DNA from: a virus
Taxonomy: Duplodnaviria > Caudoviricetes
Direction: 5' to 3' (one strand)
Length of the DNA: 26,984 nt
IMG/VR virus record: IMGVR_UViG_3300032884_000301
Location: 1 to 26,984 of that record
The position numbers and the translations under genes were made by a program. Under the pieces are notes generated by a model that searched no databases, was not told the DNA's origin, and was given only the letters and a program-made list of their open reading frames with translations. Position 1 is the first letter of the stretch. Each line of letters starts with the position of its first letter. Shown piece after piece: positions 4,124 to 26,936 of the stretch.

Positions 4124-4134
4124 ACTGCATGATG

Positions 4135-8784: not shown

Positions 8785-8786
8785 GG

Positions 8787-9352: not shown

Positions 9353-9354
9353 CG

Positions 9355-9576: not shown

Positions 9577-9594
9577 CTCGACCTCCTATGAGGC

Positions 9595-9624: not shown

Positions 9625-9886
9625 GAAATCTCGGAGCGGGAGGGCGGCGACAAATTGCCTGAGTTCGGCGCGACGGTCTGTCTAAAGCAGGCGTCGGATT
9701 GACGGCCCTCGGACGACGCTGAGGAAATGCTGATTGAAGTAAAAATAGTTGCCTCTGCCACTCTTGACGGATCGCCATTCCATGTGAGCCTCGTGGGGTC
9801 ATAGCTGAACGGCTGCAGAGGTCAACCCGGGGAAATCCGGAACCTGACCCGCGACGAGCACTGCGGCCACGTCGGGGAGAGACGCC

Positions 9887-10336: not shown

Positions 10337-10468
10337 CGGCCGCCGACACTATTAACCACGCGCAAGACGCACACCGGCCTTCTATAAGGTGCCTGACGCC
10401 CGGCCGAAAGGTTGGGCGTCTTGTTTACTCCGTACCTAGCGGCATCGCGCGCTACACAGGAGCGCGTT

Positions 10469-11215: not shown

Positions 11216-11234
11216 GCCGACTTCGACCCCCTAT
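11205..11234 (+). promoter_or_regulatory. Bipartite motif TGTCCCC-N12-CGACCCCCTAT, putative alternative-sigma promoter of the replication/packaging operon
   Basis: Second exact copy of the motif. It overlaps the sigma gene stop and ends 36 nt upstream of ATG 11271. Confidence 0.7.
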
Positions 11235-11270
11235 AGGAAGTAGAAGGCACACGGTGCCGAAGGAGGAATC

Positions 11271-11567
11271 ATGAACGACAACTGCAAATGCCGAGGGGCT
11301 CTTGACGGAGCCTTCCAGGAAGCCGCGCTCGCGCTAGGGGGCGTGGTAGCTTCCTCCCCCATTCTCGATGAGGCGATCTGGGACCTCGCCCGCGCGCTCG
11401 ATCAAATCCACGAGCGGGCGAGCGAGCGGTGCGGCGCGACGCAAACCACCCTTGCCCGCGAGACAGAAGACCCCGAACACCCGGCTATCGTCCATCTGCT
11501 CACCCGGCTGCGGGACAGGGGCGCTGCGCGCGGCGGTGCGTGCGGGTCCTGTAGGGGGCAACGATGA
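11271..11567 (+). CDS. Hypothetical protein (98 aa)
   Basis: AAGGAGG RBS and ATGA overlap with the next gene. Confidence 0.65.
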   Translation: MNDNCKCRGALDGAFQEAALALGGVVASSPILDEAIWDLARALDQIHERASERCGATQTTLARETEDPEHPAIVHLLTRLRDRGAARGGACGSCRGQR

Positions 11568-12505
11568 GCGCGCCCGAACCCACGCGGCTCGACCGCAATT
11601 CGCCGTTTCAGCCGGCAACTACCGGCAATCGCCGCCTCAAGCTCTTCCTGTGGGGAGATTCGGGTGTCGGGAAGACTACCCTCGCGCTCCGTTTCCCTAG
11701 CCCGGCCGTGATCGACCTCGAAGGCGGCACCGAGCACTACGGCGGTGAGTTCAAATTCGAGGTCCTCAAGGCCGCGAACGCCGACGAGGTCGCCGCGGCG
11801 GTCGACTGGCTACTCACCCACGAGCACCCCTACCGAACTCTCGTCATCGATCCGATCACTCTGTACTGGGACGCGTTGCAGTCCAAATGGACCGAGGTGT
11901 TCCTGCGCCGCAACAAGGGCGGCAAGGGGCACCGCGGCGAGTTCTACGACCTGCAGCCGCGCGATTGGATGACCCTCAAGGCGGAGTTCAAGGACCTCGT
12001 TCGCAAGCTCCTGCGCCTGGATATGAACGTCATCGTCACGGCCAGGCAGAAGGCGCAGTACGCCGACAGCGGCTTCATGCGGGTCGTCGGCGAGACGTTC
12101 GACGGGGAGAAATCCCTGCCCTACCTGTTCGACTCCATCTTGCGCCTGTACCGGGACGAGACCGGCCGGTTCATGGCGGAGAACCTCAAGGACCGCTCCA
12201 ACAAGCTGCCTCGGGGTCACTTCGAGGCCAGCTACGGCAAGTTCGAGACTCGGCTCGGCGCCGAAGCGCTCGACCGCGCTGCAGAGCCGGTACCTGTCGC
12301 TACGTCGGAGCAGCAAGACCGCATCCGACACTTCATCGCCACGTCCGGTATGTCATCAACGACGGTCACTCAGCGCTTGGCGGCCTATGGCGCCGCGCGG
12401 CTGGAGGACCTGAGCCCCGAAAACGCCGACCTGATCATCGCCAAGTTCGAGCACGCGGCCGCGGCCAAGCAGGCGGCGGTCCAGGACCATCCAGTAGGAG
12501 GTTGA
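11564..12505 (+). CDS. AAA_24 / Sak4-like phage ATPase (single-strand annealing)
   Basis: Walker A GDSGVGKT, IDLEGG, Walker B TLVIDPIT, NVIVTARQK, followed by a DUF669 gene as in Sak4 modules. Confidence 0.85.
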   Translation: MSAPEPTRLDRNSPFQPATTGNRRLKLFLWGDSGVGKTTLALRFPSPAVIDLEGGTEHYGGEFKFEVLKAANADEVAAAVDWLLTHEHPYRTLVIDPITLYWDALQSKWTEVFLRRNKGGKGHRGEFYDLQPRDWMTLKAEFKDLVRKLLRLDMNVIVTARQKAQYADSGFMRVVGETFDGEKSLPYLFDSILRLYRDETGRFMAENLKDRSNKLPRGHFEASYGKFETRLGAEALDRAAEPVPVATSEQQDRIRHFIATSGMSSTTVTQRLAAYGAARLEDLSPENADLIIAKFEHAAAAKQAAVQDHPVGG

Positions 12506-12508
12506 GTC

Positions 12509-12925
12509 ATGCCGAGAATCGACTTCGACAATGTGGAGTCCCCGTCCAGCTTCGCGCCCGTTCCTGACGGGGAGTACTCGGTTCGCGTCGGCGACATCGA
12601 GGCGGACTTCACCCGCGCCGGCGACGAGATGTGGAAGCTGCGCCTCTTGATCGAATCCGGCGAGCACCAGGGCCGGATCCTCTTCGACAATCTGGTCTTC
12701 AGCCCGAAGGCCATGCCGCGGGTGAAGCTCGTCTGCGAGGCCTGCGGTCTGGACACGACCGGCGTCGTGGACCTCACCCCGGCGATGCTCCTGGATAAGC
12801 TCGCGCGCGTCACGACGTACATCGAGGAGTACACCGACGACCACGGCGTCACGAAGGCGCGCAACCGCGTGCCGTTCGATGGCTACAGCCGCATCGAAGC
12901 CGTGGGCGATGACTGCCCGTTCTAA
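12509..12925 (+). CDS. DUF669 family ssDNA-binding-like protein
   Basis: FAPVPDGEYSVRV...GRILFDNL and an acidic C-terminus DDCPF. AGGAGG RBS. Confidence 0.8.
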   Translation: MPRIDFDNVESPSSFAPVPDGEYSVRVGDIEADFTRAGDEMWKLRLLIESGEHQGRILFDNLVFSPKAMPRVKLVCEACGLDTTGVVDLTPAMLLDKLARVTTYIEEYTDDHGVTKARNRVPFDGYSRIEAVGDDCPF

Positions 12926-13403
12926 GGGCGCGCTGGCGCAGGTGGAGGCGGTGCCGGCGGCCGCCTTCACCATCGCCATCGATACGCGCGAACAACTGCC
13001 GTACGCGTTCCCGGGCGCGGTCACCAAGACCCTGCCCAGTGGGGACTACTCCATCGTGGGCCTGGAGGACCGGGTCGCGATCGAGCGGAAGTCCAAGACG
13101 GACGCGTACGGCTCACTCGGCCAGGGGCGGGCGCGGTTTCGGCGAGAGGTCGAACGGCTGGCCGCCTTCGACTACGCCGCGATCGTGATCGAGGACACGG
13201 TGCAGGGGTTCCTGCGCCGCCCGCCGCACTCGAAGATGAATTCCCGCGGTGCGATCGGAACTCTCCTCGCGTGGTCGGTTCGCTACAGAATTCCCGTCTA
13301 CTTCGCCGGCGATCGCGAACATGCGCGCGCCCTTACCCAGAAGCTGCTGCAGATGTACTGGCGGTACCACCACAAGGAGCCTGCTCATGATCGCGGTTGT
13401 TGA
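12909..13403 (+). CDS. ERCC4-domain nuclease
   Basis: IDTREQ...LPSGDYS...IERKS catalytic signature. The start codon is uncertain. Confidence 0.88.
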   Translation: MTARSKGALAQVEAVPAAAFTIAIDTREQLPYAFPGAVTKTLPSGDYSIVGLEDRVAIERKSKTDAYGSLGQGRARFRREVERLAAFDYAAIVIEDTVQGFLRRPPHSKMNSRGAIGTLLAWSVRYRIPVYFAGDREHARALTQKLLQMYWRYHHKEPAHDRGC

Positions 13404-16035
13404 CGAGTGGGCCCAGTACAAAGACGAGATCCTGGCGAAGCTGGATTTCGCCAAAGTCTACGTCGACATCAAGCAGATCCGGTCCTCTGGTCCAGGCAAG
13501 ATCTCGGGGCTATGTCCCTTCCATGAGGATCACAAACCGTCGTTCGGCGTGGACCTGACCACTGGGGCTTGGGAATGCTTCGCTGGTTGCGGCAAGGGCG
13601 ATGTCTTCAAGTACCTGATGCAGAGGACCGGTAGGGGGTTCAAAGAGGTCCTGGTCGATCTTGGCGACGAGCACGGACTCGCGAGGCCAGGCAACGGTGG
13701 CGATGGATCCACGGCCGTCTACAGCTACCAAGATGAGAACGGCGCCGAGCTATTCCAGGTCGTGCGCGGCCCGAACAAGACATTCTGGCAACAACGGCCG
13801 AATGGCCACGGCGGCTACATCAAGAACCTCAACGGCGTGCGTCGAGTCTTGTACCGGCTGCCCGAGCTACTCGCGCGCCCGGGCGAAACCATATTCATCG
13901 TCGAGGGCGAGAAGGACGTCGACCGGTTGCACAACGAGGGCGTGCTTGCCACCACAAACTCCAACGGCGCGGGGAATTGGCGCAACGAGTACAACGCGTT
14001 CCTGACCGACCGTGACGTCGTCATCGTGCCGGACAATGACGCGCCGGGCCGTGCACACGCTTCGCAGATCGCCCGCGCGTTGCGTGGTCTCGCTACCAGC
14101 ATTCGCGTCATCGAGTTACCCGGATTGCCCGAGAAGGGCGACGTCAGCGATTGGCTCGATGCCGACCACACGGTGACCGAGTTGCTCGAATTGGTCGGCG
14201 CGACGCAACCGTGGTCGCCGAGCGATGAAGACACTGTGCGCCATCCGGGGGGGGCACCGCCGGACACTGGCCATGGTGGCGCGCTCGCCGACCGCGTGTT
14301 CGCCGCCGGTCGAGCGGCGGGAGTCACTCTCTTCCACGACGAGGATCGCCGTCCCTACGCCGCGATTCCCACCGAGCGGGGCCAGCGCATCGTGGCCGTC
14401 AGGTCTACCGATTTCGAGCATTGGTTCATGCACCTGGCCTGGCACGGCCTCGGTAAGTCTCTGAGCCGCGACGCGCGAAACACCGCGAGGGAGCTGTTTA
14501 GCTGCCATGCGATCTACGACGGAGACCAGATCCCGTTGGCAACTCGCGTCGCCCGCGTAGACCGCACCGTGTGGATCGATCTCGATGGCTATCGGGCCGT
14601 CCGGGTCGTACCCGGGTCCTGGGAGATCGTCGCCAGGCCGCCGATTCTCTTTCGCACGTATCCCCACCAGCGGTCGCTGCCGGAGCCCATACGAAACGGC
14701 GACATCAAGCGCGTGCTCGAGCTCGTCAATCTCTCGAGGGAAGAGGACAAGCTGCTCTTCCTCTGTAGCTTGGTCGTCGCGCTGATTCCAGATATTCCCG
14801 CGCCGGCTCTCATCCTCCACGGCCCCCAGGGCGCAGCAAAGACCACGTTTCTCAAGGTCTTCAAGCGGCTCGTGGATCCGTCGGCAGCGCCGGTCATCGG
14901 TAGCGTGAAAAGCATCGACGAGTTCGCCGTGGTCGCCGCACAGCATCGCGTCCTATTTTTCGACAATCTTACATCGCTGCCGGCGTGGCTCTCCGATGCG
15001 CTGTGTCGCGCGGTGACCGGCGACGGCTTCATGAAGCGGACCCTGTACACCGACGCCGAGACGACGACGTTGGCGTACCAGCGCCTCGTCGGCCTGTCGG
15101 GCATCAACAATGTGGTCGACAAGCCGGACCTGCTCGATCGCTCCTTGATCCTGCAACTGGCCCCGATCACGCCGGAGCAGCGTCGGGAGGAAGGGGAATA
15201 CCGGCAGCAGTTTGAGGAACTTGCGCCGGCGATCTTCGGCGGGATGCTGGATGTGCTGGCCAAGACGCTGGAAATCGCACCGACTATCAAGCTCACCAGC
15301 CGACCGCGCATGGCTGACTTCGCGCGCTGGGGGGCTGCGGCCGCCGTCGTGACGGGAGTGACGATAGAATCCTTCTTTTTAGCTTATGGAGGAAACGTAG
15401 GACGGCAAAACGAGGCGGCGTTCGAGGCCAGTCCGGTCGCCCAGGCCGTTCTGGAGTTCATGGAGAACCGCACGAGCTGGGATGGCCGCCCCGGCGACCT
15501 ATTGGAACAATTGACCTTAGCGGCTGAGGCCCTTCACCTCGACCAGCACGATCGGCAGTGGCCGAAGAACCCCCAGTGGCTCCATCGCCGCCTGACGGAG
15601 GTCGAAGCGAATCTGCTCGCCCAGGGGATCCAGGTCACCTGGTCTCGGACGGGGGAGCGCCGGACAGTCCGCATCGAAAAGGTCGGCGAAAATAGCGTCA
15701 CTGGCGTCACTGACGACAACATATTGAAAATCAACGAGTTGTCGATGACGCCATGCGCCGCGGAACTATTCGATGACGTCACGGATAGCGTCACCACGAC
15801 CTTCTATAAAGAAAACACCAGTGACGATAGTGACGATAATGACGCTACCGCCACCTCGGCTGGCGTCACCCCCTTCACGGTTATGGCGGACGATGACGAC
15901 GAGTGCGAAGCCCGCGAAGAACGCGCGGCCATCATGGAGTTCGATGGGGGATTGCCGGCAGAGGACGCAGAGCGGCTCGTGACCAGTGGCGATTCGCATC
16001 CGCAGATCGGTGATCTGTACGCGAAGGAGCAGTGA
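13387..16035 (+). CDS. DNA primase (CHC2 zinc finger + TOPRIM) fused to a P-loop helicase-like domain
   Basis: CPFHED...CFAGC zinc finger, IVEGEKDV and PDNDAPG TOPRIM motifs, GPQGAAKT Walker A, FFDN Walker B. AAGGAG RBS before ATG 13387. Confidence 0.9.
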   Translation: MIAVVDEWAQYKDEILAKLDFAKVYVDIKQIRSSGPGKISGLCPFHEDHKPSFGVDLTTGAWECFAGCGKGDVFKYLMQRTGRGFKEVLVDLGDEHGLARPGNGGDGSTAVYSYQDENGAELFQVVRGPNKTFWQQRPNGHGGYIKNLNGVRRVLYRLPELLARPGETIFIVEGEKDVDRLHNEGVLATTNSNGAGNWRNEYNAFLTDRDVVIVPDNDAPGRAHASQIARALRGLATSIRVIELPGLPEKGDVSDWLDADHTVTELLELVGATQPWSPSDEDTVRHPGGAPPDTGHGGALADRVFAAGRAAGVTLFHDEDRRPYAAIPTERGQRIVAVRSTDFEHWFMHLAWHGLGKSLSRDARNTARELFSCHAIYDGDQIPLATRVARVDRTVWIDLDGYRAVRVVPGSWEIVARPPILFRTYPHQRSLPEPIRNGDIKRVLELVNLSREEDKLLFLCSLVVALIPDIPAPALILHGPQGAAKTTFLKVFKRLVDPSAAPVIGSVKSIDEFAVVAAQHRVLFFDNLTSLPAWLSDALCRAVTGDGFMKRTLYTDAETTTLAYQRLVGLSGINNVVDKPDLLDRSLILQLAPITPEQRREEGEYRQQFEELAPAIFGGMLDVLAKTLEIAPTIKLTSRPRMADFARWGAAAAVVTGVTIESFFLAYGGNVGRQNEAAFEASPVAQAVLEFMENRTSWDGRPGDLLEQLTLAAEALHLDQHDRQWPKNPQWLHRRLTEVEANLLAQGIQVTWSRTGERRTVRIEKVGENSVTGVTDDNILKINELSMTPCAAELFDDVTDSVTTTFYKENTSDDSDDNDATATSAGVTPFTVMADDDDECEAREERAAIMEFDGGLPAEDAERLVTSGDSHPQIGDLYAKEQ
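15695..15869. repeat. Cluster of CGTCA/TGACG short repeats around a palindrome, a putative intragenic replication origin
   Basis: GCGTCAC at 15695, 15704, 15788 and 15863. TGACG at 15711, 15746 and 15774. Tandem GTGACGATA-GTGACGATA-ATGACGCTA at 15821-15847. CGACAAC-N17-GTTGTCG at 15714-15744. Confidence 0.6.
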
Positions 16036-17339
16036 TGAGTAGGACGGTCTTGACCCTCGAATCCATGGCGCTCGCCGACCTCGCACCCGCCCCCTACAAC
16101 CCCCGCACCATTAGCTCGGAGTCACTCGCCGGCCTCAGGGCCAGCGTAGAGCGCTTCGGCCTCGTGGAGCCCATCGTCTGGAACCGCCGCACAGGCCGCG
16201 TCGTGGGCGGCCACCAGCGCCTCAAGGCCCTGCAGCAACTCGGCGAGACCGAGACCCAGGTCGTGGTCGTCGACCTCGAGGAAGCCGAAGAGAAGGCGCT
16301 GAACGTCGCGTTGAACAACCCAGCGATTGCCGGCGAGTTCACAGCCGACATCCATCTGCTCCTGGCCGAACTCAAAGTCCTGATGCCCGAGCTCTACGAC
16401 GATCTGTGCTTCGACGACCTGGCGGCGCAGACCGCCAAGCTACTCGCCGAACTCGCTCCCGAGGACGGCCTCACCGATCCCGACGACGTGCCCGAGCCGC
16501 CCGAGGAGCCGGTCACCCAAGAGGGCGACCTCATCATCCTCGGCGGCCACCGGCTCGTTTGCGGCGACAGCCAGGACGCGGCAGTCATCGCGCGGCTCAT
16601 GGACGGCCACAAGGCCGCACTCTACGCCACAGACCCGCCCTACGGCGTCGGCTACGACGGCACCAGCCATCCCCAAAACCAGCGCGACAAGCAGGCGGGC
16701 CGCGCGCCTGGCACGCAGAACCACGACTGGTCGGACGACTACGAGGACCTCGACGCCTGGGACCACTTCGAGGACCAAGCGGCGTTCGAGAAATTCCTCG
16801 CCACCGTCTTCACCACGGCACGTCCTCACCTTTCGGATTCCGCCGCCTGGTACACCTGGCACGCCAGCGCGACCTCGGAGAGTTTCCGGCGGGCGTGGCA
16901 GGCGGCCGGCGTGCGCTACCACCAGATGATCAACTGGGTCAAGCCGACCTTCGTCCTCGGTTTCGCGATGTGGAACTACCGCAGCGAGCCGTGCCTCATG
17001 GGCTGGCAGCAAGGCCATAAGCCCGCGGCGTATCCCGTTGCCGACGAGAAGTCGAACGTCTGGGAGGTCGACTGGGAGGGCAAGGGCCGTTGCACCGATG
17101 GCGTGCATCCGACCCAGAAGCCCGTCCGGTTGTTCGAGCTGCCGATGTTGAAACACACCCGCCCGGGCGACATCTGCCTGGAGACATTCGCAGGCTCTGG
17201 CTCTCAGGTGATCGCCGCCGAGCGCCTGGGCCGCCGCTGCTTCGCCGTCGAGCGCAATCCCCGGTTCTGCGACGTGATCGTCTCGAGGTGGGAACAGTTC
17301 ACGGGTCAAACGGCCCAACGCATGGAGGTGTCCCGATGA
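16035..17339 (+). CDS. ParB N-terminal domain + N6/N4 DNA methyltransferase fusion
   Basis: PAPYNPR...GGHQRL ParB-like domain, TDPPY, HPTQKP and FAGSGS motifs in beta-class order. TGATG coupling to the primase gene. Confidence 0.92.
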   Translation: MSRTVLTLESMALADLAPAPYNPRTISSESLAGLRASVERFGLVEPIVWNRRTGRVVGGHQRLKALQQLGETETQVVVVDLEEAEEKALNVALNNPAIAGEFTADIHLLLAELKVLMPELYDDLCFDDLAAQTAKLLAELAPEDGLTDPDDVPEPPEEPVTQEGDLIILGGHRLVCGDSQDAAVIARLMDGHKAALYATDPPYGVGYDGTSHPQNQRDKQAGRAPGTQNHDWSDDYEDLDAWDHFEDQAAFEKFLATVFTTARPHLSDSAAWYTWHASATSESFRRAWQAAGVRYHQMINWVKPTFVLGFAMWNYRSEPCLMGWQQGHKPAAYPVADEKSNVWEVDWEGKGRCTDGVHPTQKPVRLFELPMLKHTRPGDICLETFAGSGSQVIAAERLGRRCFAVERNPRFCDVIVSRWEQFTGQTAQRMEVSR

Positions 17340-17893
17340 AACTCAAGGGTTACAGCCAAGACGTAAAACTGCGTGCGAAGGCGCTGTGGATCGTCGGCAA
17401 CCTTTCCGACCAGCAGATTGCGGACCAGCTTGGCATCGCCCGCGCCGGCACGATCGGCGACTGGCGCAAGGAGGACGGCTGGGAACATGAGCGCGAGATC
17501 ATTCGGCAGGCGACCGAAGAGAGGGTCGCCGCGGCGGTCAGCGAGACGATCTCGGCGATGAACACCCGCCATCTCAGGGAATACCAGTTGTTGCAAAGCA
17601 AGGGTGTCGCTGCCCTCAAGCACCTCGATCCGCGAACGGCCGCCGAAGCACAGTCGGCGATCGATGTGGGGATCAGGGGCGAGCGCCTGGTCCGCGGCGA
17701 GCCGACCGAGGTCCGCGAGGTTCGGGCGCTGATGCTGGCCAACGTGCAGGTCCTCGAGGTCGTGGTGTCTGAGGTGATAAAAGTCCTACTAAACAACGGC
17801 GTGATCGACAGCCGCGGCGCTCGCCAGTTCGCGGAGCTATTCGCCGACCGGATCAACGGAGCGCCGTTTCGGTACCGCGTGGAGGGAAATTGA
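17336..17893 (+). CDS. Putative terminase small subunit (N-terminal HTH)
   Basis: AKALW...SDQQIADQLGIARAGTIGDWRKEDGW HTH followed by a helical region, located between the methylase and terL. GGAGGTG RBS and ATGA overlap. Confidence 0.65.
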   Translation: MKLKGYSQDVKLRAKALWIVGNLSDQQIADQLGIARAGTIGDWRKEDGWEHEREIIRQATEERVAAAVSETISAMNTRHLREYQLLQSKGVAALKHLDPRTAAEAQSAIDVGIRGERLVRGEPTEVREVRALMLANVQVLEVVVSEVIKVLLNNGVIDSRGARQFAELFADRINGAPFRYRVEGN

Positions 17894-17995
17894 TACCGTA
17901 GAAGAATCTACGGTGACGAAAATGGCTGAATCCGGATAAGTGCAAGTAATGAGACAACTTGCAGAATTAGGCGATTCGGGAAAACCGCCGATTTG

Positions 17996-18058
17996 CTACG
18001 GCAAATCTACGGTAAAACCACGCCAGGACGGCAAATCGACGGCAAAACTACGGCAAAA
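17996..18058 (+). repeat. Five direct copies of an 11-mer (consensus CTACGGCAAAW)
   Basis: CTACGGCAAAT 17996, CTACGGTAAAA 18007, GGACGGCAAAT 18026, CGACGGCAAAA 18037, CTACGGCAAAA 18048. Confidence 0.85.
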
Positions 18059-18142
18059 AGGTCGCATAGATGTGAATATGAGACTAGGTAATATCAGCAG
18101 TAACAAAGGTCGGAGAGTAATATGCGACCCCAAGTAACAAAC

Positions 18143-19018
18143 TCACGCACCACGACCCGCCCCCGCGTTGATGACCTCGCGCCAGCGCAACGGGTCGACC
18201 TGCGCGTAGTACTCCGTCGTCGCGACGTGCTGGTGGCGCATCGCGACTTGCACGAGTCGAATATCACCCGTCTGATTGTAGAGCCGCGTAGCGAACGTGT
18301 GGCGCAGCGAATGCGGCGAGAGCTCCTTGTCGATGCCCGCTTCGCGCAGCCGCCGTTGCACGATGCGTTGCACTTGACGTGTCGAGATGCGCCGCCCGCC
18401 AGCCGTGAACAGCGGCGCCTCCGCCGCGCGAGTAATAAGTGGTGCGAGTACCGCCAGCGCCCGCTCGCTGAGCAAGACTCGCTCTGGCTCGCCGCCCTTC
18501 GCGGCCTTGATGATCGCGACCTTCCCGCGCGCGTCGATATTACCAACATCAAGGCCGACCGTTTCTGCGAGACGACAGCCGGTAAGAATCATGAAGGTCA
18601 GGAGCGCGTGGTCGCGCGCGGCGTGGCGTCCTACGAAGTCGAAGCTCAAGACCTGCTCGATCTCGGCTTCGGTGAGCACGGCCGGCGGCAGCACGCGATG
18701 GCGCTGGCAGCGCAGAATGGCGGTCGGGTTGCGCGGCACGAGCCACCTCGCTTCGCTCCACGCGAACAGCGCCTTCAAGGTGACGCGGTAGCGGTTGATG
18801 GTGGCCTTGGCGCGGTGGCGGCCTGTGGCGTCGAGCTGCACGCCCGGGCTACCGATGAATCGCTGCAGCAGGTCGGGCGTCACGGCGGCGAGGTCCATGT
18901 CGCCAGTGAAGGTGGTGAAGGCGCGCAGGTCTCGGCGGTACGCGGCCACCGTGTGCGGCGAGCGTTGTTCCGCCGCCAGGTTCGCCAGGTATTGGTCGGC
19001 AGTTTCGCGAACGGTCAT
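18143..19018 (-). CDS. XerC/XerD-family tyrosine recombinase
   Basis: SPHTVAAYRRDL N-domain and complete catalytic set R (TGCR), K (KGG), HSLRH, H, Y (TTEYY). AAGGAG RBS before ATG 19018. Confidence 0.95.
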   Translation of the reverse strand: MTVRETADQYLANLAAEQRSPHTVAAYRRDLRAFTTFTGDMDLAAVTPDLLQRFIGSPGVQLDATGRHRAKATINRYRVTLKALFAWSEARWLVPRNPTAILRCQRHRVLPPAVLTEAEIEQVLSFDFVGRHAARDHALLTFMILTGCRLAETVGLDVGNIDARGKVAIIKAAKGGEPERVLLSERALAVLAPLITRAAEAPLFTAGGRRISTRQVQRIVQRRLREAGIDKELSPHSLRHTFATRLYNQTGDIRLVQVAMRHQHVATTEYYAQVDPLRWREVINAGAGRGA

Positions 19019-19081
19019 GGGGTTCTCCTTGGGTCCGGGTGGTGGCTCTACGTCTGCCTCCATCAGGGCTCTTGGGGGACC

Positions 19082-19106
19082 CCGTAGCAAGTGATATCTG
19101 CCGTAG
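19082..19106 (-). repeat. Two inverted copies of the CTACGG 11-mer upstream of the integrase
   Basis: The minus strand reads CTACGGCAGAT (19106-19096) and TTGCTACGG (19090-19082), matching 17992-18006. Confidence 0.65.
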
Positions 19107-19141
19107 TGGTAATGGTTTAAGGTTTGTAAAGGGGCGATCAA

Positions 19142-21538
19142 ATGGCGATGCAAAAGGCGCTGACGAAGGTCATCCGCGGCAGTGAGAGTGGCGGCGACGT
19201 GACGGTGCTCACGACGTCTTCGTCACTATTGGAGAAGGTCGGGCTTGGCGCCTCGCCCATGGACTTCGGCCTACCGGACCTCCTGGAGGATGGCCTCACG
19301 CCCGGTCAGCAAGACGCCCTCTTGAAGCACCTCGTCGAGACCCACCTGTTCATCTTCAAGGACGGCCGCCGCCAGGCCATCGTGATGATCGAGCCGATGG
19401 TTCGGTTCGTAGCCGACCTGTTCTTCGAGCGCCAGCAGCAGGCCATCTTGTGGAAACCGCGAGGGGGCGGTGGGTCGCTTGCGGCCGCAATTCTGATCTG
19501 GCTCATGATGGTCTACCGGCAGAAGTCGTTCCTCGATATGGCGGGCTCGGGGGAGCAGGCGAAGCGGGTTTACGAGTACACGACCCAGTTCTGGTACTGC
19601 GTCCCTGGGCTTACCGACGCCCTCCTGGACGGCGATCCGCTGCTCTCGGAGACGCGGTTGAAGAGCGGCGTCACGCTGTCGTGCGTCCCGGCGTCCGAGA
19701 AGGCGGCCCGCGGCAAGCATGTCGCCGGGTTCGTCGCCGACGAGAGCTGTCAGGAAGATGTCCGCGTCGGTAAGGTCCTGCAGGCTGCCGTCCAAGGCGC
19801 GCTCAGCGAGCCGAACTTCACAATCGTCTTGCTGTCGACCTTCCACGTCCCGTTCGGGTTCTTCCAGGAGAACTGGGACTTGGCCGAGGAGCGGGGGTAC
19901 GCCCGGTACCGCTGGGACGTGTATGACTGCATGGCGTGCTGCCGGGTGGGGATCGAGGACGCTACGGAGGCCGACCCGCAGGCGCTCGGGTACTGCCGGC
20001 GGGAATGTCCGCTGACCGAGGTCGTGCCGGACCGCAACGCGGAAGGCCAGCTCATCGGCGAGCACTTCGAGGGGTGCAACGGCCGGGCCAGGACCGCCGC
20101 CGGCCACCTCTCGCGAGACAACGTCCTGAAAGCGAAGATGCTCAACCGCGGCACCGACGTCTGGGCCGTCGAGCACGAGTGTAAGCGGCCCACGTCCTCA
20201 GGGATGATCTACGACGCGGAGAAGGTGCAGGAGGCGGTTACACCACTGGCGGAACTCCAGCGCCCCACAGGAGCCGTCAGACGGGCTGTGGGCATCGACT
20301 GGGGCCGCTTCGCCGTCGCCATCCTGGCCGAGCGTGCCGTCGACCACATCTCGGTCAGCGAAGCGCGGATCTTCGACTCGAAGACCATCGGCGACCTGGT
20401 CCAGTACTTGGTGGAGTTGCGTGCCCGCATCGGAGACTTCGTGGTCTACGGCGACGCGGAGAACGCCTACGGGAACCTCGACTGCCGCAACGCGGGCTTC
20501 GAGGTGGTCCCCGTGCCCTTCAACAAGATGAAGGACGAAGGCATCGAGAACCTGGCCCGATACTTCAACCACGGCAAGATCAAGATCGCGGACGACGGTC
20601 AGCTGAAGACCGTGGTCAGGCAACTACTGCGATACCGTCGAAACGAGGCCGGTCGAATCGTGAAGCAGGACGACCACGGCCCGGACGCCCTCATGTGCGC
20701 GATGCTGCACTTCCCATTCGTGGACGAGTTCGACACCGCCCTGGGGCAGCTGCTCTCGGGAACCGACCGCGAACGCCTGAAGGTCACCAACGCCCTACTG
20801 GACGCCTGCATCCACGAATACCCGCAGGAGTTGCCCGAGGACGGGTACTGCTCCATGGGCGTTTCGATGTCCACCTCGAGCTTCTACGTCGTGGTCTCGC
20901 TCGTGCCCGACTTCGAGGACGGCAAGTTCCTGGGCCCGCGCCGGGCGATGGTCATTGGCCGGGTCAAGGACTGGCACGACCTGGATGCGTTGATCAAGCG
21001 CTGGAACGTCCGCAACTGCCTGATCTGTCCGCAGCCCGAGCCGCACCTGGTCCAGCAATGGATGCGCAAGTACGAGGATCATGAGGTCTCGCAGCTCATC
21101 TACGTGAACGACGGGATTCGCGAACCCGAGTGGAACCAGCAGGAGAACCGGGTCACGGTGGATCGCACGTACGCGTTCAACGCTGCCTACGAGGAGGTGC
21201 GTGCCCGTTCGTGGTGGATTCCGCCCTCGGCGCGGGACATCGACAACGGCGACTTCTATGCCCAGATGAAGGTGCCGACGCGAGTTCGCGATGCTGCCGA
21301 CGGCGAGATCAAGTACCGCTGGATCGAGACCGGACCCCTGGACCACTACCGCCACGCCCACGCGTTCGACTGTATCGCCGCGGACATCGCGCGCCAGAAC
21401 CCGCCTGCGTACATGTTCGTGCCAGAATTCGTCGGCGAAAGCGAGAGCGCGCGCCTGGCGCGGGCGCTCGGGTACGACACCGGCTACCGCAACGGGTGGT
21501 TGACGCATAACTGGCCGAGGCGACGGTCGTACCGCTGA
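19142..21538 (+). CDS. Terminase large subunit with an additional C-terminal nuclease-like domain
   Basis: ATPase region (PRGGGGS, FVADES, LLSTF), RNase H-like nuclease (GIDWG, YGDAE, DDHGPDAL), then about 260 extra aa with a gpA-nuclease-like pattern ending DHYRHA. Confidence 0.85.
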   Translation: MAMQKALTKVIRGSESGGDVTVLTTSSSLLEKVGLGASPMDFGLPDLLEDGLTPGQQDALLKHLVETHLFIFKDGRRQAIVMIEPMVRFVADLFFERQQQAILWKPRGGGGSLAAAILIWLMMVYRQKSFLDMAGSGEQAKRVYEYTTQFWYCVPGLTDALLDGDPLLSETRLKSGVTLSCVPASEKAARGKHVAGFVADESCQEDVRVGKVLQAAVQGALSEPNFTIVLLSTFHVPFGFFQENWDLAEERGYARYRWDVYDCMACCRVGIEDATEADPQALGYCRRECPLTEVVPDRNAEGQLIGEHFEGCNGRARTAAGHLSRDNVLKAKMLNRGTDVWAVEHECKRPTSSGMIYDAEKVQEAVTPLAELQRPTGAVRRAVGIDWGRFAVAILAERAVDHISVSEARIFDSKTIGDLVQYLVELRARIGDFVVYGDAENAYGNLDCRNAGFEVVPVPFNKMKDEGIENLARYFNHGKIKIADDGQLKTVVRQLLRYRRNEAGRIVKQDDHGPDALMCAMLHFPFVDEFDTALGQLLSGTDRERLKVTNALLDACIHEYPQELPEDGYCSMGVSMSTSSFYVVVSLVPDFEDGKFLGPRRAMVIGRVKDWHDLDALIKRWNVRNCLICPQPEPHLVQQWMRKYEDHEVSQLIYVNDGIREPEWNQQENRVTVDRTYAFNAAYEEVRARSWWIPPSARDIDNGDFYAQMKVPTRVRDAADGEIKYRWIETGPLDHYRHAHAFDCIAADIARQNPPAYMFVPEFVGESESARLARALGYDTGYRNGWLTHNWPRRRSYR

Positions 21539-21555
21539 CTCGCTGGACAGCAGGC

Positions 21556-21741
21556 GATCGACGGCGGGGAGTTGTACGCCCATCTGAAGGCGCCGACGCG
21601 CGTCAGGGATCTCACGACCGGCGAGCTGCGGTACCGGTGGACGGAGACGGGGGCGCTGGATCACTACAGGCATGCGCATGCGTTCGATCACACCTGGCGG
21701 GTGTGTTTCGCGGGGCGTTGTCGGGGGTGAGGTTGCTGTAG
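21556..21741 (+). pseudogene. terL 3'-end relic 1 (frameshifted)
   Basis: Encodes IDGGELYAHLKAPTRVRDLTTGELRYRWTETGALDHYRHAHAFDH, homologous to 21239-21370, then a 2-bp insertion, then LAGVFRGALSGVRLL*. Confidence 0.85.
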
Positions 21742-21824
21742 CGGGTGGAAGTTGGCGAGAGGAGTATCGCGAAAGAGGTATGTGATTTCACCCACGCAAT
21801 TCAACGAGTAGTCCAAATTTATAC

Positions 21825-21854
21825 TTGACAGCTTAGTTTTGCCTCCGCTACGAT
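21825..21854 (+). promoter_or_regulatory. Sigma-70-type promoter of the cargo gene
   Basis: TTGACA-N18-TACGAT, 56 nt upstream of ATG 21911. Confidence 0.55.
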
Positions 21855-21910
21855 CAAATCGCGGACTGGAGGAGTCCGGTCTAAGGTTTCTTCGTATGGG
21901 GGGTGGCAAA

Positions 21911-22918
21911 ATGCAAAAGTTGATCTTTCTTGTATCCATCGTATCTTTTTTTCTCGTTGTCACTCTTGGAATTCCCCTGCAATCGACCGCTACAGCTATT
22001 GCCGGTTGCTCTGAGGTCGGGCTGACCGCCGTTTTCTTGGTGAGCTACATTTACCCTCTGGATTCGCCGCAACTCTACTTGCTGGACGTCGCCGCGGTTG
22101 GCCCGGTGACAAGTCCGTCAGAACCCGAGATGGTTGCGGCCATCCAGGCCGTTCAACCCGAATCTTACTACGAGCATCTCGCTCAGTCTGGCCCATTTCA
22201 TCTCTTCATCTCTGAGCCGGACGATTGGGGTGCCTGCGCCATCGTTGATGGCCGGGACGGGCGCGTCGTCTTCGCCGGTACAATTGCTTGGCTTGGCTTC
22301 GGCTCGGTGACTCTGCCGGCGAACTCGAGCCATCCCTGGTCGTTCTCTCCCGGCGATCCGGCGGCTGAACCCGGCACAGTTGGGTATCTTCCCAACGACA
22401 ACTGGTTAAATCAATACGGTACACCAGAAGATATCACGGATGCGGTCGTAGATTACCTTCGTGGTAGCGACATCTTACGGAGTTTTGGTGACTGCGGCGC
22501 TTATGATATTGTATCGTATATCTACACTCCCATTGATAATCCGGGCGTCGACCCACAGTCTGCTTCGATGGTTGTCCTCGTCAGTGGTCGCTGTGGGCTG
22601 CCGTGGAACGACGCCATCACCGTGGTACCGTCGAGTCCCGTGGCGACGTGGCTCGCGGCGGCGGCTCCGAATCCTTTCAACCCGCGAACCACGGTGACCT
22701 TTACCCTGCAGGCCACTGGACACGCGACGTTGGCGATTCATAATGCCCGGGGGATGGAAGTGGCGCGGTTGGTAGACGAGACGCTCGCCTCCGGAATTCA
22801 TAGCGTCGAATGGACGGGCATAGACGCCTATGGCCGCTCGCTGCCATCGGGGACGTATTTATGCCGCCTCTCGACGCCATGGGGTGTGACGACGAGCAAG
22901 ATGGAGCTCCTCCGATAA
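21911..22918 (+). CDS. Secreted protein with C-terminal FlgD-Ig sorting domain
   Basis: Signal peptide MQKLIFLVSIVSFFLVV and C-terminal APNPFNPRTTVTF...WTGIDAYGRSLPSGTYL. The N-terminal domain is unrecognised. Confidence 0.8.
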   Translation: MQKLIFLVSIVSFFLVVTLGIPLQSTATAIAGCSEVGLTAVFLVSYIYPLDSPQLYLLDVAAVGPVTSPSEPEMVAAIQAVQPESYYEHLAQSGPFHLFISEPDDWGACAIVDGRDGRVVFAGTIAWLGFGSVTLPANSSHPWSFSPGDPAAEPGTVGYLPNDNWLNQYGTPEDITDAVVDYLRGSDILRSFGDCGAYDIVSYIYTPIDNPGVDPQSASMVVLVSGRCGLPWNDAITVVPSSPVATWLAAAAPNPFNPRTTVTFTLQATGHATLAIHNARGMEVARLVDETLASGIHSVEWTGIDAYGRSLPSGTYLCRLSTPWGVTTSKMELLR

Positions 22919-23187
22919 GGCAAGGGCTCTTAACCCGACCGTCGACCCTGATTCAGCCCGGGGTTTACACTTTGCGGCATTGGCGATCACGCTGACGGTC
23001 TGGAAAACCAGGTTAATCCGTCGCGGTCTAAATAAATACAATTGCCTGGACATTTGTCACCTGCACTCGTATCTGGGTGCGCAATTTGCCCGGAGTTATG
23101 TTTCGGCCTCCAGGTGTGCATGGTGCCAGTGCGGGATTCGCACCCGACATTTGCAGTGCGCAACAATATCTAATTGAGGGGGAAATC

Positions 23188-25365
23188 ATGAAACAGGTTA
23201 CGACAGCGAACAACGAGATACTAAATCAGAAGTACACTATTGGATGGCTTTTTCGTTTGATGTCGGCTATGTTCACGATAATCTTAATGATTGGAATTGC
23301 CTCCGCTCAGCCGTCAGACCTTATTGAACGAGATTGCGGAGTAATCGTACAGTTTCGAGAACCGCTAATTACGTTCGACGGGAATCTCCATCGAGGCAAC
23401 CTGACCGAACTGCTGATTGATGGCGAGATGCTGCGGAGCATTCTGCAAGACGCTGGTGTGACCTATGTGCGACAGATACACCGACGCGCAGTACCTGTAA
23501 AGGAAATCAATGGCATAGTTAGGCGAATGCCCGACCTTGCCAATACTTACGTTCTGACCTGTGAGAGTCCGAGAATGATCGGCCCTTGTATTCGCGCTCT
23601 CACTGAGCTTCCTATAGTTGTTTTCGCCGAGCCAAACTACATGGAGACTACTCCTTTGGCGTGCCCAAATCCAATAGACCCGTACTTCGAGCCTGATTCC
23701 GTTGATGCATACCAGTGGTGGTTCACCGGGGCCCGAGAGCATACAGATGCACACATAAATATCGGGCCTGCGTGGGAAGTTACTTGTGGTGAGTCAACGA
23801 CCCGCATCGGATTCCTAGACCAAGGTGTTCGCACCAGCCACGATGACATCGGCAATAGATGTATTAATTACGGCGGCGAAAACGGTGGCCACGGAACCCG
23901 AGTGTACGGTATCTTAGCGGCAAATGCAAACTCAGTTGGCATCGCCGGGATGATCCAAGAGGCGCAAGTCGTATCGTGGAATATATCGCCATATTCTCTG
24001 GCGGCATTCGCTGACACAATTATCGCGGCAGTAGATAATTGGGACTGCGACGTCTTGTGTACATCGAGTACCATTATAACTGCTACATATTCATACGAAG
24101 TCGCAAGCACGTTGAAGAATGCGATTGACTATGCGTACGATTCTGGGGTGCCGTTTGTCGCGGCCACAGGCAACGATGAACAAGGATATGTGTATCAGCC
24201 GGCTTGCATAGACGAAGTGATCGCTGTTGGCGCAAGCGATACCACGGACGCGTTCCGCGATGCGAATACCAACGGCATACCGGACTACAATTGTGGCCGC
24301 TTGCTGGACATTCTAGCGCCGGGAGAGTGGATGACTACGACGGATTCGGCGTCCAATTCAAGTTACTATACGGCTACCTGGGGAACGTCCTTTTCGCAAC
24401 CAATTGTCACCGGGGCAATTGCGTTGATGAACGCGGCCCAGGATGAGCTGGGCGTTTGGAGATATTCGGTTGAGGACTACGAAGGAATGCTGTACGCGTA
24501 CGCGAAAGACTTTGCGTCGGCCGGATATGACACGTTGACGGGGTGGGGCAGAATCGATGTCGGTAGAACCATCGAGAATATGTCTGGCAGATACAGCATG
24601 ATCCACGATCAACAAACCGGCGGAGCTCTCGTAGATTCTACTGGGAGGATCAAATGTACGGCGTACGGGTTTTCAAACCAAGGGCTCAAGCATGGTAACC
24701 AGTACCACATGAAACGGTTCACGATAGAAAAGACTGTTACTTGGCCGCAGTATGCCGACGGAGACTCTGTATTTTGCTGGGGCATGTCAAATGTATCGAG
24801 TGGTATAAGAGACTATGTCCGGAAATGGTCCTTCTTACCGCCTGGCGGACAAACCGCCAGTCATTTGCTGTTCAATCGGCGAATGTGCTATCCTGTGTAC
24901 TCAACGATTGAAGATAACGGCGCGGTGTTTCATAGCTATTACTATAAGGTCTACGCTGGGCCGGTGGACGACACGGTTATTGCTGTTCTCGGGCAGAGCA
25001 ATCCCGATAGCGTAGTATTTTCGTTCGGCGTTGTCGGTCCGGACAGTATTCCTAGTAAGCAATTTGCGTCAGGCACGAAAGTCGCGGGTTCATCGTGGGC
25101 GTCTAGGAGCTATCCCAACCCGTTCAACCCCGGGACGACAATCTCGTTCAGCCTGCCGCAGTCGGGGCGCGTCGCGGTGGCCGTTTACGATATGGGCGGC
25201 CGCATGGTGCGTGTACTGGTAGACGAAATGCGTAGAGCCGGGAACTACGATGTTCGATGGGATGGAACGGATGGCCGCGGCCAGCAGGTGGCGTCCGGGG
25301 TTTACGTCTGCCGGATGGAGGCGGGCTCCTTACGAGAGACGAGACGGATGACCTTGGTGAGATGA
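23188..25365 (+). CDS. S8 subtilisin-like serine peptidase with FlgD-Ig C-terminal domain
   Basis: Propeptide ending FAEPNY, triad LDQG / GHGT / GTSFSQP, AATGND, GWGRID, and C-terminal YPNPFNP...ASGVY. GAGGGGG RBS. Confidence 0.92.
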   Translation: MKQVTTANNEILNQKYTIGWLFRLMSAMFTIILMIGIASAQPSDLIERDCGVIVQFREPLITFDGNLHRGNLTELLIDGEMLRSILQDAGVTYVRQIHRRAVPVKEINGIVRRMPDLANTYVLTCESPRMIGPCIRALTELPIVVFAEPNYMETTPLACPNPIDPYFEPDSVDAYQWWFTGAREHTDAHINIGPAWEVTCGESTTRIGFLDQGVRTSHDDIGNRCINYGGENGGHGTRVYGILAANANSVGIAGMIQEAQVVSWNISPYSLAAFADTIIAAVDNWDCDVLCTSSTIITATYSYEVASTLKNAIDYAYDSGVPFVAATGNDEQGYVYQPACIDEVIAVGASDTTDAFRDANTNGIPDYNCGRLLDILAPGEWMTTTDSASNSSYYTATWGTSFSQPIVTGAIALMNAAQDELGVWRYSVEDYEGMLYAYAKDFASAGYDTLTGWGRIDVGRTIENMSGRYSMIHDQQTGGALVDSTGRIKCTAYGFSNQGLKHGNQYHMKRFTIEKTVTWPQYADGDSVFCWGMSNVSSGIRDYVRKWSFLPPGGQTASHLLFNRRMCYPVYSTIEDNGAVFHSYYYKVYAGPVDDTVIAVLGQSNPDSVVFSFGVVGPDSIPSKQFASGTKVAGSSWASRSYPNPFNPGTTISFSLPQSGRVAVAVYDMGGRMVRVLVDEMRRAGNYDVRWDGTDGRGQQVASGVYVCRMEAGSLRETRRMTLVR

Positions 25366-25404
25366 TATGGAACAGCTAGTCAAGCGTATATGAAAACTCT
25401 CCTC

Positions 25405-25433
25405 GGGTCCCGGCATCAGCTGGGGCCCTTTCT
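25405..25433 (+). terminator. Probable intrinsic terminator
   Basis: GGGTCCCGGC-ATCA-GCTGGGGCCC stem (two G-U pairs) followed by TTTCT, 40 nt after the peptidase stop. Confidence 0.55.
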
Positions 25434-25616
25434 GATTGCTGGCGCAGGGACTCCAACGGACGGTTGATCAGACTGTTTTCCGCGGGTTGGTTACCGCACA
25501 AAATTCTGTCCGTCTCGGGTTGACCTCCGTCTAAGGCCGCGGGTCCGGCTCATGGCCTGCCGCATACTTCAGACGAGGATTCCCCTGAGCGGTCCCTGCT
25601 CCACCCCAGTTTCTAC

Positions 25617-25883
25617 TTGGTCGACCAGACGTTCGCTCTGAACGCCGCCTACGAGGAGATCGGTGCCCAAAACTGGGTGCTGCCGCCGAATGCTCGCGAG
25701 ATCGACGGCGGGGAGTTGTACGCGCAGCTGAAGGCGCCGACGAGAGTCCGCGACCTCACGACGGGCGAGCTGCGGTACCGCTGGACGGAGACGGGGGCTC
25801 TTGATCACTACAGGCATGCGCATGCGTTCGATCATCTGGCGGGCGTGTTTCGCGGGGCGTTGCCGGGGGTGAGAGCCTTGTAG
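25617..25883 (+). pseudogene. terL 3'-end relic 2
   Basis: VDQTFALNAAYEEI...IDGGELYAQLKAPTRVRD...DHYRHAHAFDHLAGVFRGALPGVRAL* aligns with the terL C-terminal domain. It is 5'-truncated and has no RBS. Confidence 0.85.
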
Positions 25884-25967
25884 TGGGGAGAATGGCGGCG
25901 GGACTTCCTCCTCTATTGGACTCCAGCGTCCGCGTCTGCCGGCTAGCCGACGCGTGCCACCCCCGAC

Positions 25968-26027
25968 GCCTTCGACCACCCGGCGGGCGTCTATCGCGGG
26001 GCGCTGCCTGGGGTAGAAGTGCCATAG
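25968..26027 (+). pseudogene. terL 3'-end relic 3 (short, degenerate)
   Basis: Encodes AFDHPAGVYRGALPGVEVP*, colinear with the last 19 codons of relics 1 and 2. Confidence 0.7.
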
Positions 26028-26771
26028 CCATGAGGACATAGACGACGGCCGGGCTATGACACACAATTTCAGATAATACCAGTCTCCGCTCCCCCGCAAG
26101 GTAAAGCGCCGGGACAAACTGGGAATTCACAAATTTCGCCTTGGACGCACGCAACAGGCGCAACATTACCCAGAGTAGAGACTTACAAATGCAACCAGTT
26201 ATTATCCTAATCCCGTAGCCGGCGACCGCCGCAAATACCACTTCCTCCCGCCGCTCACCGCGGTAGTCTGACACTGCGGCGAGACGACTGGGGAATCGTC
26301 AGCAATGGAAGACGGGGGTCTTTCAATCCGCGCCGACGGTTTCCGCTTTCGTCTCACTGCTGGGGTGACTGCCGATGGAGGGAGAGCGCGGTCGTGGGGA
26401 CAATTGAGGTCATTTCGGACTTTTTAGGCGCGTGTTTTCCGAAACGGTACTCGATCCTGATGCCGTTTGACCGTCTGGGCCCCGTCGTTCTTATCGTGCC
26501 CGACTCTCCAAACGGCTGTATTCGTCTGCACGGCAACTGCCGCGCATCTACTACAGAACACTTGGCCGGCACTTGCAATGGTAAATTGCCAGGGTAAAGA
26601 ATCGGAAGGATGCCAGTGAGTGTTCGTCATCGAAACCGTCGACTATTTGCGGCAGTCGACTCGAATCCCCTCCTGAAGGGTGTAGCGAAAGCAATATACG
26701 TTAGCGTTCAAGTCTAGTATGCAGAAGGAGCGCAACGCTCCTCAGGTCCACAAACGCATTGGGGGAGCAAA

Positions 26772-26936
26772 ATGCGGCAACTATCTTGCATTGTTGTATT
26801 CTTAGCGTTGGGTTCGATGCTGGCGACTCAATTTTGTCGTGCGAACCCACCGACCAATAATGGCTCCTCGCTGAATTGTGTGGGTGAAAACAGACGCCTC
26901 CGGTCTCCTATAATCCCTCCGCCGCTCTTCTGCTGA
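26772..26936 (+). CDS. Short signal-peptide ORF (54 aa), possibly a truncated cargo gene
   Basis: GGGGGAG RBS and MRQLSCIVVFLALGSMLATQFCRA signal-like N-terminus, with an early stop. Below the ORF-track cutoff. Confidence 0.35.
   Translation: MRQLSCIVVFLALGSMLATQFCRANPPTNNGSSLNCVGENRRLRSPIIPPPLFC

Follow-up and report, generated by a model that had tools for sequence, protein, structure and literature searches.

We analysed a 26,984-nt stretch of viral DNA, the IMG/VR record IMGVR_UViG_3300032884_000301 (hereafter the window), which is a metagenomic contig and the complete record (linear class, CheckV completeness 16%). An original prediction had described three 5'-truncated copies of the 3' end of terL, the large terminase gene, downstream of an intact terL and interspersed with genes for secreted proteins, and had read them as a possible integron-like accretion of cargo. 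Self-BLAST and protein searches confirmed the three copies, all on the plus strand; we call them relics 1 to 3. The features from the recombinase beside terL (lengths in amino acids, aa) towards the contig end are as follows.

18143..19153, minus strand: Xer-like tyrosine recombinase with Phage_integrase and SAM_1 domains, divergent from terL
19142..21538, plus strand: intact terL, 798 aa, long ("alpha") tail, recognised by PHROG terminase profiles
21557..21741, plus strand: relic 1, a short-tail ("beta") terL 3' unit, aa ~698 to stop
21825..21854, plus strand: promoter-like site, TTGACA-18-TACGAT, sigma-70-like with 10/12 matches, by consensus match only
21839..22918, plus strand: cargo gene 1, secreted, with a FlgD_ig / type IX secretion system (T9SS) type A sorting tail (Pfam E 2.4e-7; TIGR04183 at cut-off)
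23077..25365, plus strand: cargo gene 2, S8 subtilase (Peptidase_S8, E 2.4e-28) with a FlgD_ig / Por_Secre_tail C-terminus; GC 0.524
25405-25428: terminator-like hairpin after cargo gene 2, by consensus match only
25620..25883, plus strand: relic 2, a short-tail terL remnant with an open frame, aa ~672 to stop
25903..25944, plus strand: small, decayed internal terL fragment, ~aa 557-570, between relics 2 and 3
25968..26027, plus strand: relic 3, the last 19 codons of a short-tail terL
26772..26936, plus strand: 54-aa open reading frame (ORF) near the contig end with a predicted signal-peptide-like N-terminus and no Pfam family

The intact terL and its relics

Relic 1 starts 18 nt past the terL stop codon, in frame with terL. 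By self-BLAST, relic 1 (21556-21731) is 90.9% identical to relic 2 (25700-25873) over 176 nt (E 1.2e-65) and 74.2% identical to terL 21239-21369 over 132 nt (E 3e-16); the relic 2 region matches terL 21167-21369 at 72.1% over 204 nt (E 7.5e-24), and relic 3 (25968-26014) matches relic 2 at 83% over 47 nt (E 1.5e-7). At the protein level, relic 2 matched terL aa 672-747 (E 3.4e-33) and relic 1 matched aa 698-743 (E 2.3e-18), and the fragment at 25903-25944 is 83% identical over 42 nt to the terL of a relative (E 9e-6). Relic 1 looks like a clean type of unit. Relics 2 and 3 appear to be what is left of longer terL genes in a more advanced state of decay, not tidy cassettes.

The relics had been said to share a tail, AGV(F/Y)RGAL(S/P)GVxxx*, that the intact terL does not have. 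Relics 2 and 3 carry it as AGV(F/Y)RGALPGVxxx*, ending in AFDHLAGVFRGALPGVRAL and AFDHPAGVYRGALPGVEVP, respectively; in relic 1 it is readable only across a 2-nt indel, giving HLAGVFRGALSGVRLL if the indel is skipped and the frameshifted HTWRVCFAGRCRG as written. The intact terL does end differently, in a 55-aa C-terminal tail, ...CIAADIARQNPPAY...WPRRRSYR*. No tRNA or known RNA was found at the window relics, and no integrase remnant was visible in three frames upstream of relic 2. The tail of relic 3 is partly repeated in inverted orientation 43 nt downstream (arms 25979-25994 and 26038-26053, 16 nt at 88% complementarity), and another inverted pair, of 11 nt, is nested next to this one (window 25979-26062).

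The 798-aa TerL matches phrog_2 (terminase large subunit, E 8.5e-11 over aa 93-528) and phrog_675 (E 7.4e-9), and reached no Pfam or NCBIfam family. An AlphaFold (AF2) model of aa 530-798, built on a 24-sequence alignment (predicted local distance difference test 78, predicted template modelling score 0.76), places a nuclease fold at ~aa 538-757. Its top 14 structural matches are all large-terminase structures, mostly isolated nuclease domains (Z 10.9-14.8, 161-183 residues aligned), the best being 5m1f (Z 14.8, 167 residues aligned, root mean square deviation 3.3). The protein thus combines the N-terminal ATPase of a large terminase with a predicted RNase H-like nuclease fold. On this model, the block retained in the relics would be the last hairpin and helix of the nuclease fold, one third of it, plus the disordered tail, and not a separate domain. 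The C-terminal tails of TerL proteins are of long and short types, and both are predicted to be disordered. We also noted that aa 437-520 weakly match terminase nuclease domains (E 0.02), with QDDHGPDAL just ahead of aa 520; terL may carry a duplicated or inserted nuclease-like segment. The annotated starts of terL and the divergent integrase overlap by 12 nt (19142-19153), and one or both probably lie further in.

A promoter and two secreted FlgD-tailed proteins had been predicted after relic 1, and both were found, as a promoter-like site and as two genes with FlgD_ig/T9SS sorting tails. The translation of cargo gene 1 shows a hydrophobic N-terminus, and its start is likely the internal MQKLIF near 21911. 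In another metagenome (L054:280-1287, compared with window 25114-25883), a gene has a closely similar FlgD sorting tail, 72% identical in nucleotides. As in the window, it is followed by a terL relic, here after ~420 nt and from near aa 675; the protein bodies upstream are unrelated.

The relics descend from other terL alleles

The window relics derive from a short-tail ("beta") terL lineage and not from the resident long-tail ("alpha") terL. The earlier codon count for relics 1 and 2 was exact: 10 of 45 codons differ, 9 of them synonymously (12 nt differences), and the changes are mostly at third positions, of several kinds and not adenine-specific. Among the beta modules compared, relics included, synonymous divergence (dS) is 0.3-3.1 and the ratio of nonsynonymous to synonymous change (omega) is 0.01-0.15. 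The beta modules differ mostly at synonymous sites and therefore come from separate, selected terL alleles, as the original prediction had held for the relics.

An intact terL with a relic-type tail, also predicted, does exist: it is 756 aa long and ends HLAGVYRGVLGRMVVVV. A contig-limited 239-aa C-terminal piece ends HLAGVYRNALPGVRVL, and many terLs of 748-770 aa have related short tails. Mosaic genes occur as well. In L048 and L049 a beta-like module sits on a body that is not of the beta type, and in L051_b a beta module is fused to an alpha tail. The joints of the mosaics fall near aa 697, in a variable loop, and in the invariant stretch HYRHAHAFD. Two abutting units at L051, c and d, are 77% identical over their first 132 nt and 92% over their last 52 nt.

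Truncated terL ends recur with varied cargo

Related terL genes (45-83% aa identity) were found at 6 viral loci on 5 contigs, on 7 contigs of metagenome-assembled genomes (MAGs) and at 35 metagenome loci, and relatives occur in 19 of the 91 genomes of one order, that of one of the MAGs. The hosts appear to be Fibrobacteraceae-like (3/7 genome loci are labelled Fibrobacteraceae or Fibrobacter). A backbone of methylase, TerS-like gene, integrase and terL is kept at 55-86% aa identity, and by synteny the integrase-terL pair is conserved wherever the upstream sequence of a relative is present.

Relics were tallied by hand over distinct terL loci with at least 600 nt downstream, with near-duplicates collapsed and same-strand copies counted within ~6 kb. 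At least one same-strand, 5'-truncated 3' copy was present at 9 of 25 loci (the window, L016, L048, L051 with four relics, L056, the L070-72/G072 lineage, G006 unit 1, G052 E1 and G048:C448). Relics with different cargo beside them, as the original prediction had expected in relatives, recur across many independent assemblies, and the architecture is present in contigs of 135-468 kb. Solitary relics also lie in two long chromosomal contigs, G023:C3 and G051:C5, whose fetched flanks hold no element genes, and truncated terL proteins were found inside long contigs.

The cargo between terL and relic varies by locus, from PD-Lambda-2, restriction endonuclease (REase)-like and HEPN genes to T9SS-tailed proteins; the cargo of G052 E1 was compared with PADLOC only, and that of G048:C448 stood outside the screen. 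On G052:C1 (L111:15436-17048) a complete PD-Lambda-2 A/B pair (B subunit E 7.7e-134) sits between the terL of a decaying element and its relic. The L072 lineage has an REase/RAMA-like gene and L051 a HEPN protein, and in G006 unit 2 and L076 terL or a relic is directly followed by DUF4238 proteins. A recombinase shared among the cargo genes was considered and rejected, as the three cargo proteins of ~400 aa are unrelated to one another; neither a recombinase family nor mutual similarity was found among the screened cargo ORFs. Past the last relic, relatives usually run into FlgD-tailed, FG-GAP or beta-helix genes.

Only at L067 does an integrase lie next to a relic. There (L067:4024-6773), a different TerL of typical length (506-aa open frame, phrog_2 E 2.3e-30) ends in a tail, ...CCGLLGPTRESVKLLGNYDY..., similar to the long tails found in this family. 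A Xer-like integrase comes next, and an E-type relic of the 798-aa terL family (aa ~674 to end) begins at the integrase stop codon.

Many relics share limits, and some abut head to tail

In the loci covered, seventeen relics begin at terL aa 685-704, many of them at codons ~688-704. Stacking of units, another claim of the original prediction, was observed at seven junctions in six contigs (the window, L048, L051 c>d, L073 a>b, L044, and the homologous loci L054 and L075). At each, the stop codon of one tail is followed after 0-22 nt by (GAG)ATCGAC..., the next unit opening with (GAG)ATCGACGG... At L016 a unit of ~340 nt, from ~codon 697 to 80 nt past the stop, occurs twice, and it occurs once in G007.

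Three further observations concern the same region. First, the DNA right after the terL stop is G-rich in most relatives (e.g. TAG GGGG...), and across terL loci we found no post-stop motif more specific than this G-rich run. Second, a terL fragment covering aa 624-693 (L108, G005:C11:61451-61534) ends at the variable loop where many relics start, and unrelated DNA follows it. Third, several contigs start a few codons from relic-type boundaries or end just past the terL tail (L073, L074, L075, L077, L007, L009 and L013). Contig limits of this kind would be expected of a multi-copy repeat at which assemblies break, which the tail may be.

The element that carries terL

The integrative element within the window spans ~15.7 kb, from its left terminus to the terL stop. 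Homology with relatives begins at ~5821-5838 and stops in the terL tail; in relatives, too, the element extends from a conserved left terminus, next to the serine recombinase, approximately to the stop codon of terL. Its features upstream of the Xer-like integrase are as follows.

5838..21538, plus strand: element core, left terminus to terL stop (Pfam/PHROGs); GC 0.64
6033..7769, minus strand: large serine recombinase with Resolvase, Recombinase and Zn_ribbon_recom domains (E 1.8e-37)
7613-8620, minus strand: DUF2924 protein, next to the serine recombinase
11564..17339, plus strand: recombination/replication module (Pfam and PHROGs), comprising the next five genes
11564-12505, plus strand: Sak4-like AAA_24 protein
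12509-12925, plus strand: DUF669 protein, like a single-stranded DNA-binding protein (SSB)
12879-13403, plus strand: ERCC4 nuclease
13249-16035, plus strand: primase, 928 aa
16032-17339, plus strand: ParB-N6/N4 methyltransferase
17090..17893, plus strand: putative small terminase or DNA-binding protein (phrog_4151, DNA-binding protein, E 2e-6)

The serine recombinase is CcrB/XisF-like at scores under the NCBIfam cut-offs. The ORF at 17090..17893 probably starts at an internal MKLKG near 17333; its product is a candidate TerS, and its place ahead of terL is kept in relatives. A Pfam and PHROGs scan recognised no capsid, portal or tail families in the window element, which looks like a satellite or a defective island. 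No reverse transcriptase, as a diversity-generating retroelement would have, was present among the 20 window ORFs scanned.

The original prediction had treated portal and capsid genes as expected after terL. In this family they are not, because the screened intervals of relatives hold no virion genes. Between terL and the next recombinase, the screened ORFs of G006 and G007 gave only weak fn3 or LamG-type matches to such genes, and they include an FG-GAP giant, FlgD-tailed and beta-helix proteins, a type I restriction-modification system, GmrSD and methylases. G006 (L034-L037), G007 (L038-L039) and G052:C1 (L109-L112) each hold two tandem, diverged elements on one contig, 79-91% identical in nucleotides and 15-21 kb apart. 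In G052 E1, the recombinase, methylase, integrase and terL are all frameshifted, and the G001 terL is frameshifted too.

How the relic array may have formed

We tentatively prefer the reading that the relics are 3' terL ends displaced by repeated recombination at a joint within the last ~50-125 codons of the resident terL, and regard it as plausible, if short of probable. Related elements, or cargo-bearing segments of them, would recombine serially at this joint, each event installing a new gene end and displacing the previous one downstream. The joint would then act like an attachment site, and the enzyme could be either of the two element recombinases, the large serine one at the far end or the Xer-like integrase beside terL. 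Growth of the array would proceed by serial events, much as partial tRNAs accumulate in tycheposon islands. We favour serial recombination because the relic limits recur, units stack head to tail, adjacent units have independent allelic origins, integrase and terL are paired, and both L067 and the tycheposon analogy point the same way. We also count in its favour the recurrence at 9/25 loci, the mosaic terLs, the varied cargo, and the tandem elements together with the lone relics.

A more specific version gives the terL end a function. In it, the last ~50 codons would be a docking site, and terL-end units with or without cargo would be moved by the Xer-like recombinase, building integron-like arrays that shuttle defence and secreted-protein genes and renew the TerL C-terminus. 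Taken as a whole, we find this version doubtful.

Several observations weigh against serial recombination at terL. Sixteen of the 25 terL loci in the hand tally have no relic. No integrase was found in the window cargo (Pfam) or in the screened cargo ORFs of G006 unit 1, L051, L056 and L072. Some relic limits are scattered (aa 289, 547, 629, 632, 655, 660 and 671-677), and these relics look like plain truncations. A conserved DNA core was not proven: across 37 long terL tails, variability and third-position entropy are both highest at codons 693-700. Synonymous diversity at codons 700-707 is modestly low (0.36 vs 0.47), a segment that ranks fourth of 37 windows and consists mostly of two-fold codons under GC bias; a stretch of 23-27 nt is invariant, but among the closest beta modules only. 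No terL sequence lies beside the six element left ends inspected (the window, G006 units 1 and 2, the second unit of G007, and G052 E1 and E2), and no circular or excised form was seen. Lastly, the window cargo has a host-like GC of 0.54 vs 0.64 for the element and carries a promoter-like and a terminator-like site of its own; it may therefore never have travelled with a relic. The secreted-protein genes between the window relics may be cargo or resident host DNA.

Candidate left-end signals were also examined and set aside. Insertion of an element into a resident terL by the serine recombinase was rejected, as the expected left junction, with terL codons up to ~697 beside the left terminus, was not found in the window or at the other left ends inspected. 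The 10-mer GCTCGCGAGA, common to the window left junction and the relic boundary, has E 0.4 and in relatives is conserved terminal element sequence. A weak terL-tail-like match at window 5890-6018 (E 0.11) was attributed to chance; it is antisense to a conserved small ORF, and in relatives this stretch does not match their own tails. A scan with the left-terminus pattern matched records without terL.

Homology could have done the work of a dedicated recombinase. The Sak4, SSB and ERCC4 proteins of the element, or host RecA, would recombine diverged terL 3' ends, with one crossover homologous and one illegitimate, leaving partial duplicates whose 5' limits mark the end of homology, and gene conversion would keep the relics "fresh". 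The element does encode a Sak4-like annealing protein, a DUF669 SSB-like protein and an ERCC4 nuclease. The crossovers of mosaic terLs, at the conserved HYRHAHAFD and in the variable loop near aa 697, suit such exchange, as do the nearly identical tails on diverged bodies in L051 c and d, relic limits that match the starts of conserved sequence blocks, and the failure to find a conserved DNA core. However, random illegitimate joins are unlikely to have produced seven junctions that fall 0-22 nt past a stop codon and at nearly the same terL position in unrelated upstream contexts. At L048 the terL module and its own relic are identical over the first ~27 nt only, with no sign of recent conversion. 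We judge exchange by homology possible but on the unlikely side.

The relics might instead mark a passive graveyard, in which related elements integrated at separate nearby sites of an island and decayed by deletion, with no joint in terL, and tails survived by chance or beside selected host genes. Such a history would suit the tandem diverged elements of G006, G007 and G052, 15-21 kb apart, the frameshifted terLs of G052 E1 and G001, the truncated terL proteins inside long contigs, the scattered 5' ends of truncated remnants, the internal terL fragment that accompanies relic 3, and the host-like GC of the cargo. It leaves unaccounted for that 3' ends alone survive and are always oriented like terL, that limits cluster at aa 685-704 and that units abut head to tail, and we consider it improbable.

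TerL tails bind the portal, as known from work on lambda and T3/T7, and relics might accordingly be kept as a library of silent donors for swapping the TerL end, for instance to fit helper-phage portals or to evade terminase-sensing defences. An element without capsid genes would rely on the capsids of a helper, the relic modules are under strong purifying selection (omega 0.01-0.15 at dS up to 3.1), long and short tail types with predicted disorder exist, and so do mosaic terL genes. Many relics are nonetheless decayed or frameshifted (window relics 1 and 3, L051_a, L093 and L075_b), those examined mostly have no start codon, and none is a proven donor. With the relic block amounting to one third of a nuclease fold and not a separate domain, and with 16/25 terL loci relic-free, a donor library is very improbable.

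That an assembler chained strain variants of one terL tail is scarcely credible: the window is indeed a contig from a metagenome, and breaks at or near the terL tail occur in many related contigs, but the copies are 72-91% identical, of unequal length and separated by unique sequence with complete genes, and the same architecture appears in many independent assemblies.

Comparison with known systems

Of the proposed integron-like accretion at the terL 3' end, the recurrence, the varied cargo and the stacking stood; no integron machinery, no attC-like hairpin at relics 1 and 2 and no clearly constrained DNA core was found. The likeness lies in a tyrosine recombinase divergent beside the start of the array and in head-to-tail units with unrelated cargo, some of them "empty". 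The array is not a true integron: its recombinase falls short of the IntI model, relics 1 and 2 showed no attC-like hairpins, and a promoter-like site belonging to the cargo precedes it. The integrase scores 145-151 bits with the XerC, XerD and XerA models (XerC 151), all under their own cut-offs, and with the IntI-type models 83.5 bits against a cut-off of 265 (TIGR02249, two partial stretches) and 53 against 435 (NF011946). An inverted-repeat scan, which involved no single-strand folding, found no attC-like hairpins at relics 1 and 2; it returned an 11-nt palindrome in the relic 1 region, 9-nt arms between relics 2 and 3, and a 16-nt repeat after relic 3. Unlike attC sites, which are structured, the repeats here are terL coding 3' ends under protein-level selection. 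A 2.4-kb gene separates integrase and array here, and promoter-like sites of the cargo's own set it apart further.

The original prediction had also stated that no described system uses gene ends in this way, which overstates the case, since serial integration that leaves partial copies of the target gene has been described for tRNA-targeting islands such as tycheposons. In these, new arrivals push older ones further in, leaving partial tRNAs (bioRxiv 10.1101/2020.12.28.424599). Of the known systems, tRNA-targeting islands with accretion at a single site are the closest in their workings to the terL array. The likeness extends to a full-length target gene followed by cargo interrupted by partial direct 3' copies, to degenerate remnants and tandem elements, and to a tyrosine recombinase with primase-type replication genes. 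An intact target with direct partial 3' copies flanking inserted DNA, as in tRNA islands, was found at 9/25 loci, the window among them; an integrase inside the inserted unit was absent from the screened cargo, with L067 as the exception. The systems differ in that the target here is the 3' end of a mobile-element protein gene, terL, and not a host tRNA, that the screened cargo intervals hold no integrase (the sole one beside a relic being that of L067), and that the attachment core is putative and the hosts appear Fibrobacteraceae-like.

Phages and their satellites have variable slots for cargo or defence genes in P2/P4 hotspots and in the accessory regions of phage-inducible chromosomal islands (PICIs). 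The terL slot resembles these in its fixed backbone position and differing accessory or defence genes, here PD-Lambda-2, REase-like, HEPN and DUF4238. It differs in that partial terL ends mark its far side in about a third of loci, and in that the window cargo consists of T9SS-tailed secreted proteins, not defence genes. PICIs, capsid-forming PICIs, P4-like elements and PICI-like elements (PLEs) are phage satellites. The window element resembles them as a small integrative element with recombinase, primase and packaging-related genes and without capsid, portal or tail genes, and may itself be a phage satellite; a full large terminase (798 aa) without a capsid gene and the presence of two recombinases set it apart. 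In the open-access literature searched, nothing on point was found on terminase genes as attachment sites or on terL-bearing satellites.

If serial recombination at terL is correct, the terL 3' end would be a new kind of target for cargo accretion, inside a mobile-element gene rather than a host tRNA. This would explain why, in an uncultured bacterial lineage, defence and secreted-protein genes gather beside those for packaging. Such slots could be recognised in metagenomes by a simple signature, an intact terL with fragments of its own tail behind it. Such a role would also point to a widespread, undescribed family of islands with a large terminase and without capsid genes.

The left flank of the element

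Upstream of the element core, the window holds three genes of the kinds met downstream of terL in relatives.

1291..5402, plus strand: left flank with FG-GAP/ASPIC, FlgD-tailed and beta-helix proteins (Pfam); GC 0.577
1291-3222, plus strand: FG-GAP/ASPIC protein, probably the 3' part of a larger gene
3158-4123, plus strand: FlgD-tailed protein
4185-5402, plus strand: beta-helix protein

The trio of FG-GAP/ASPIC giant, FlgD-tailed and beta-helix genes thus lies upstream of the serine recombinase in the window and downstream of terL in L010, L011, L016 and L051. The left-flank trio is 25-33% identical in amino acids to its counterparts in relatives, compared to 55-82% for the element core.

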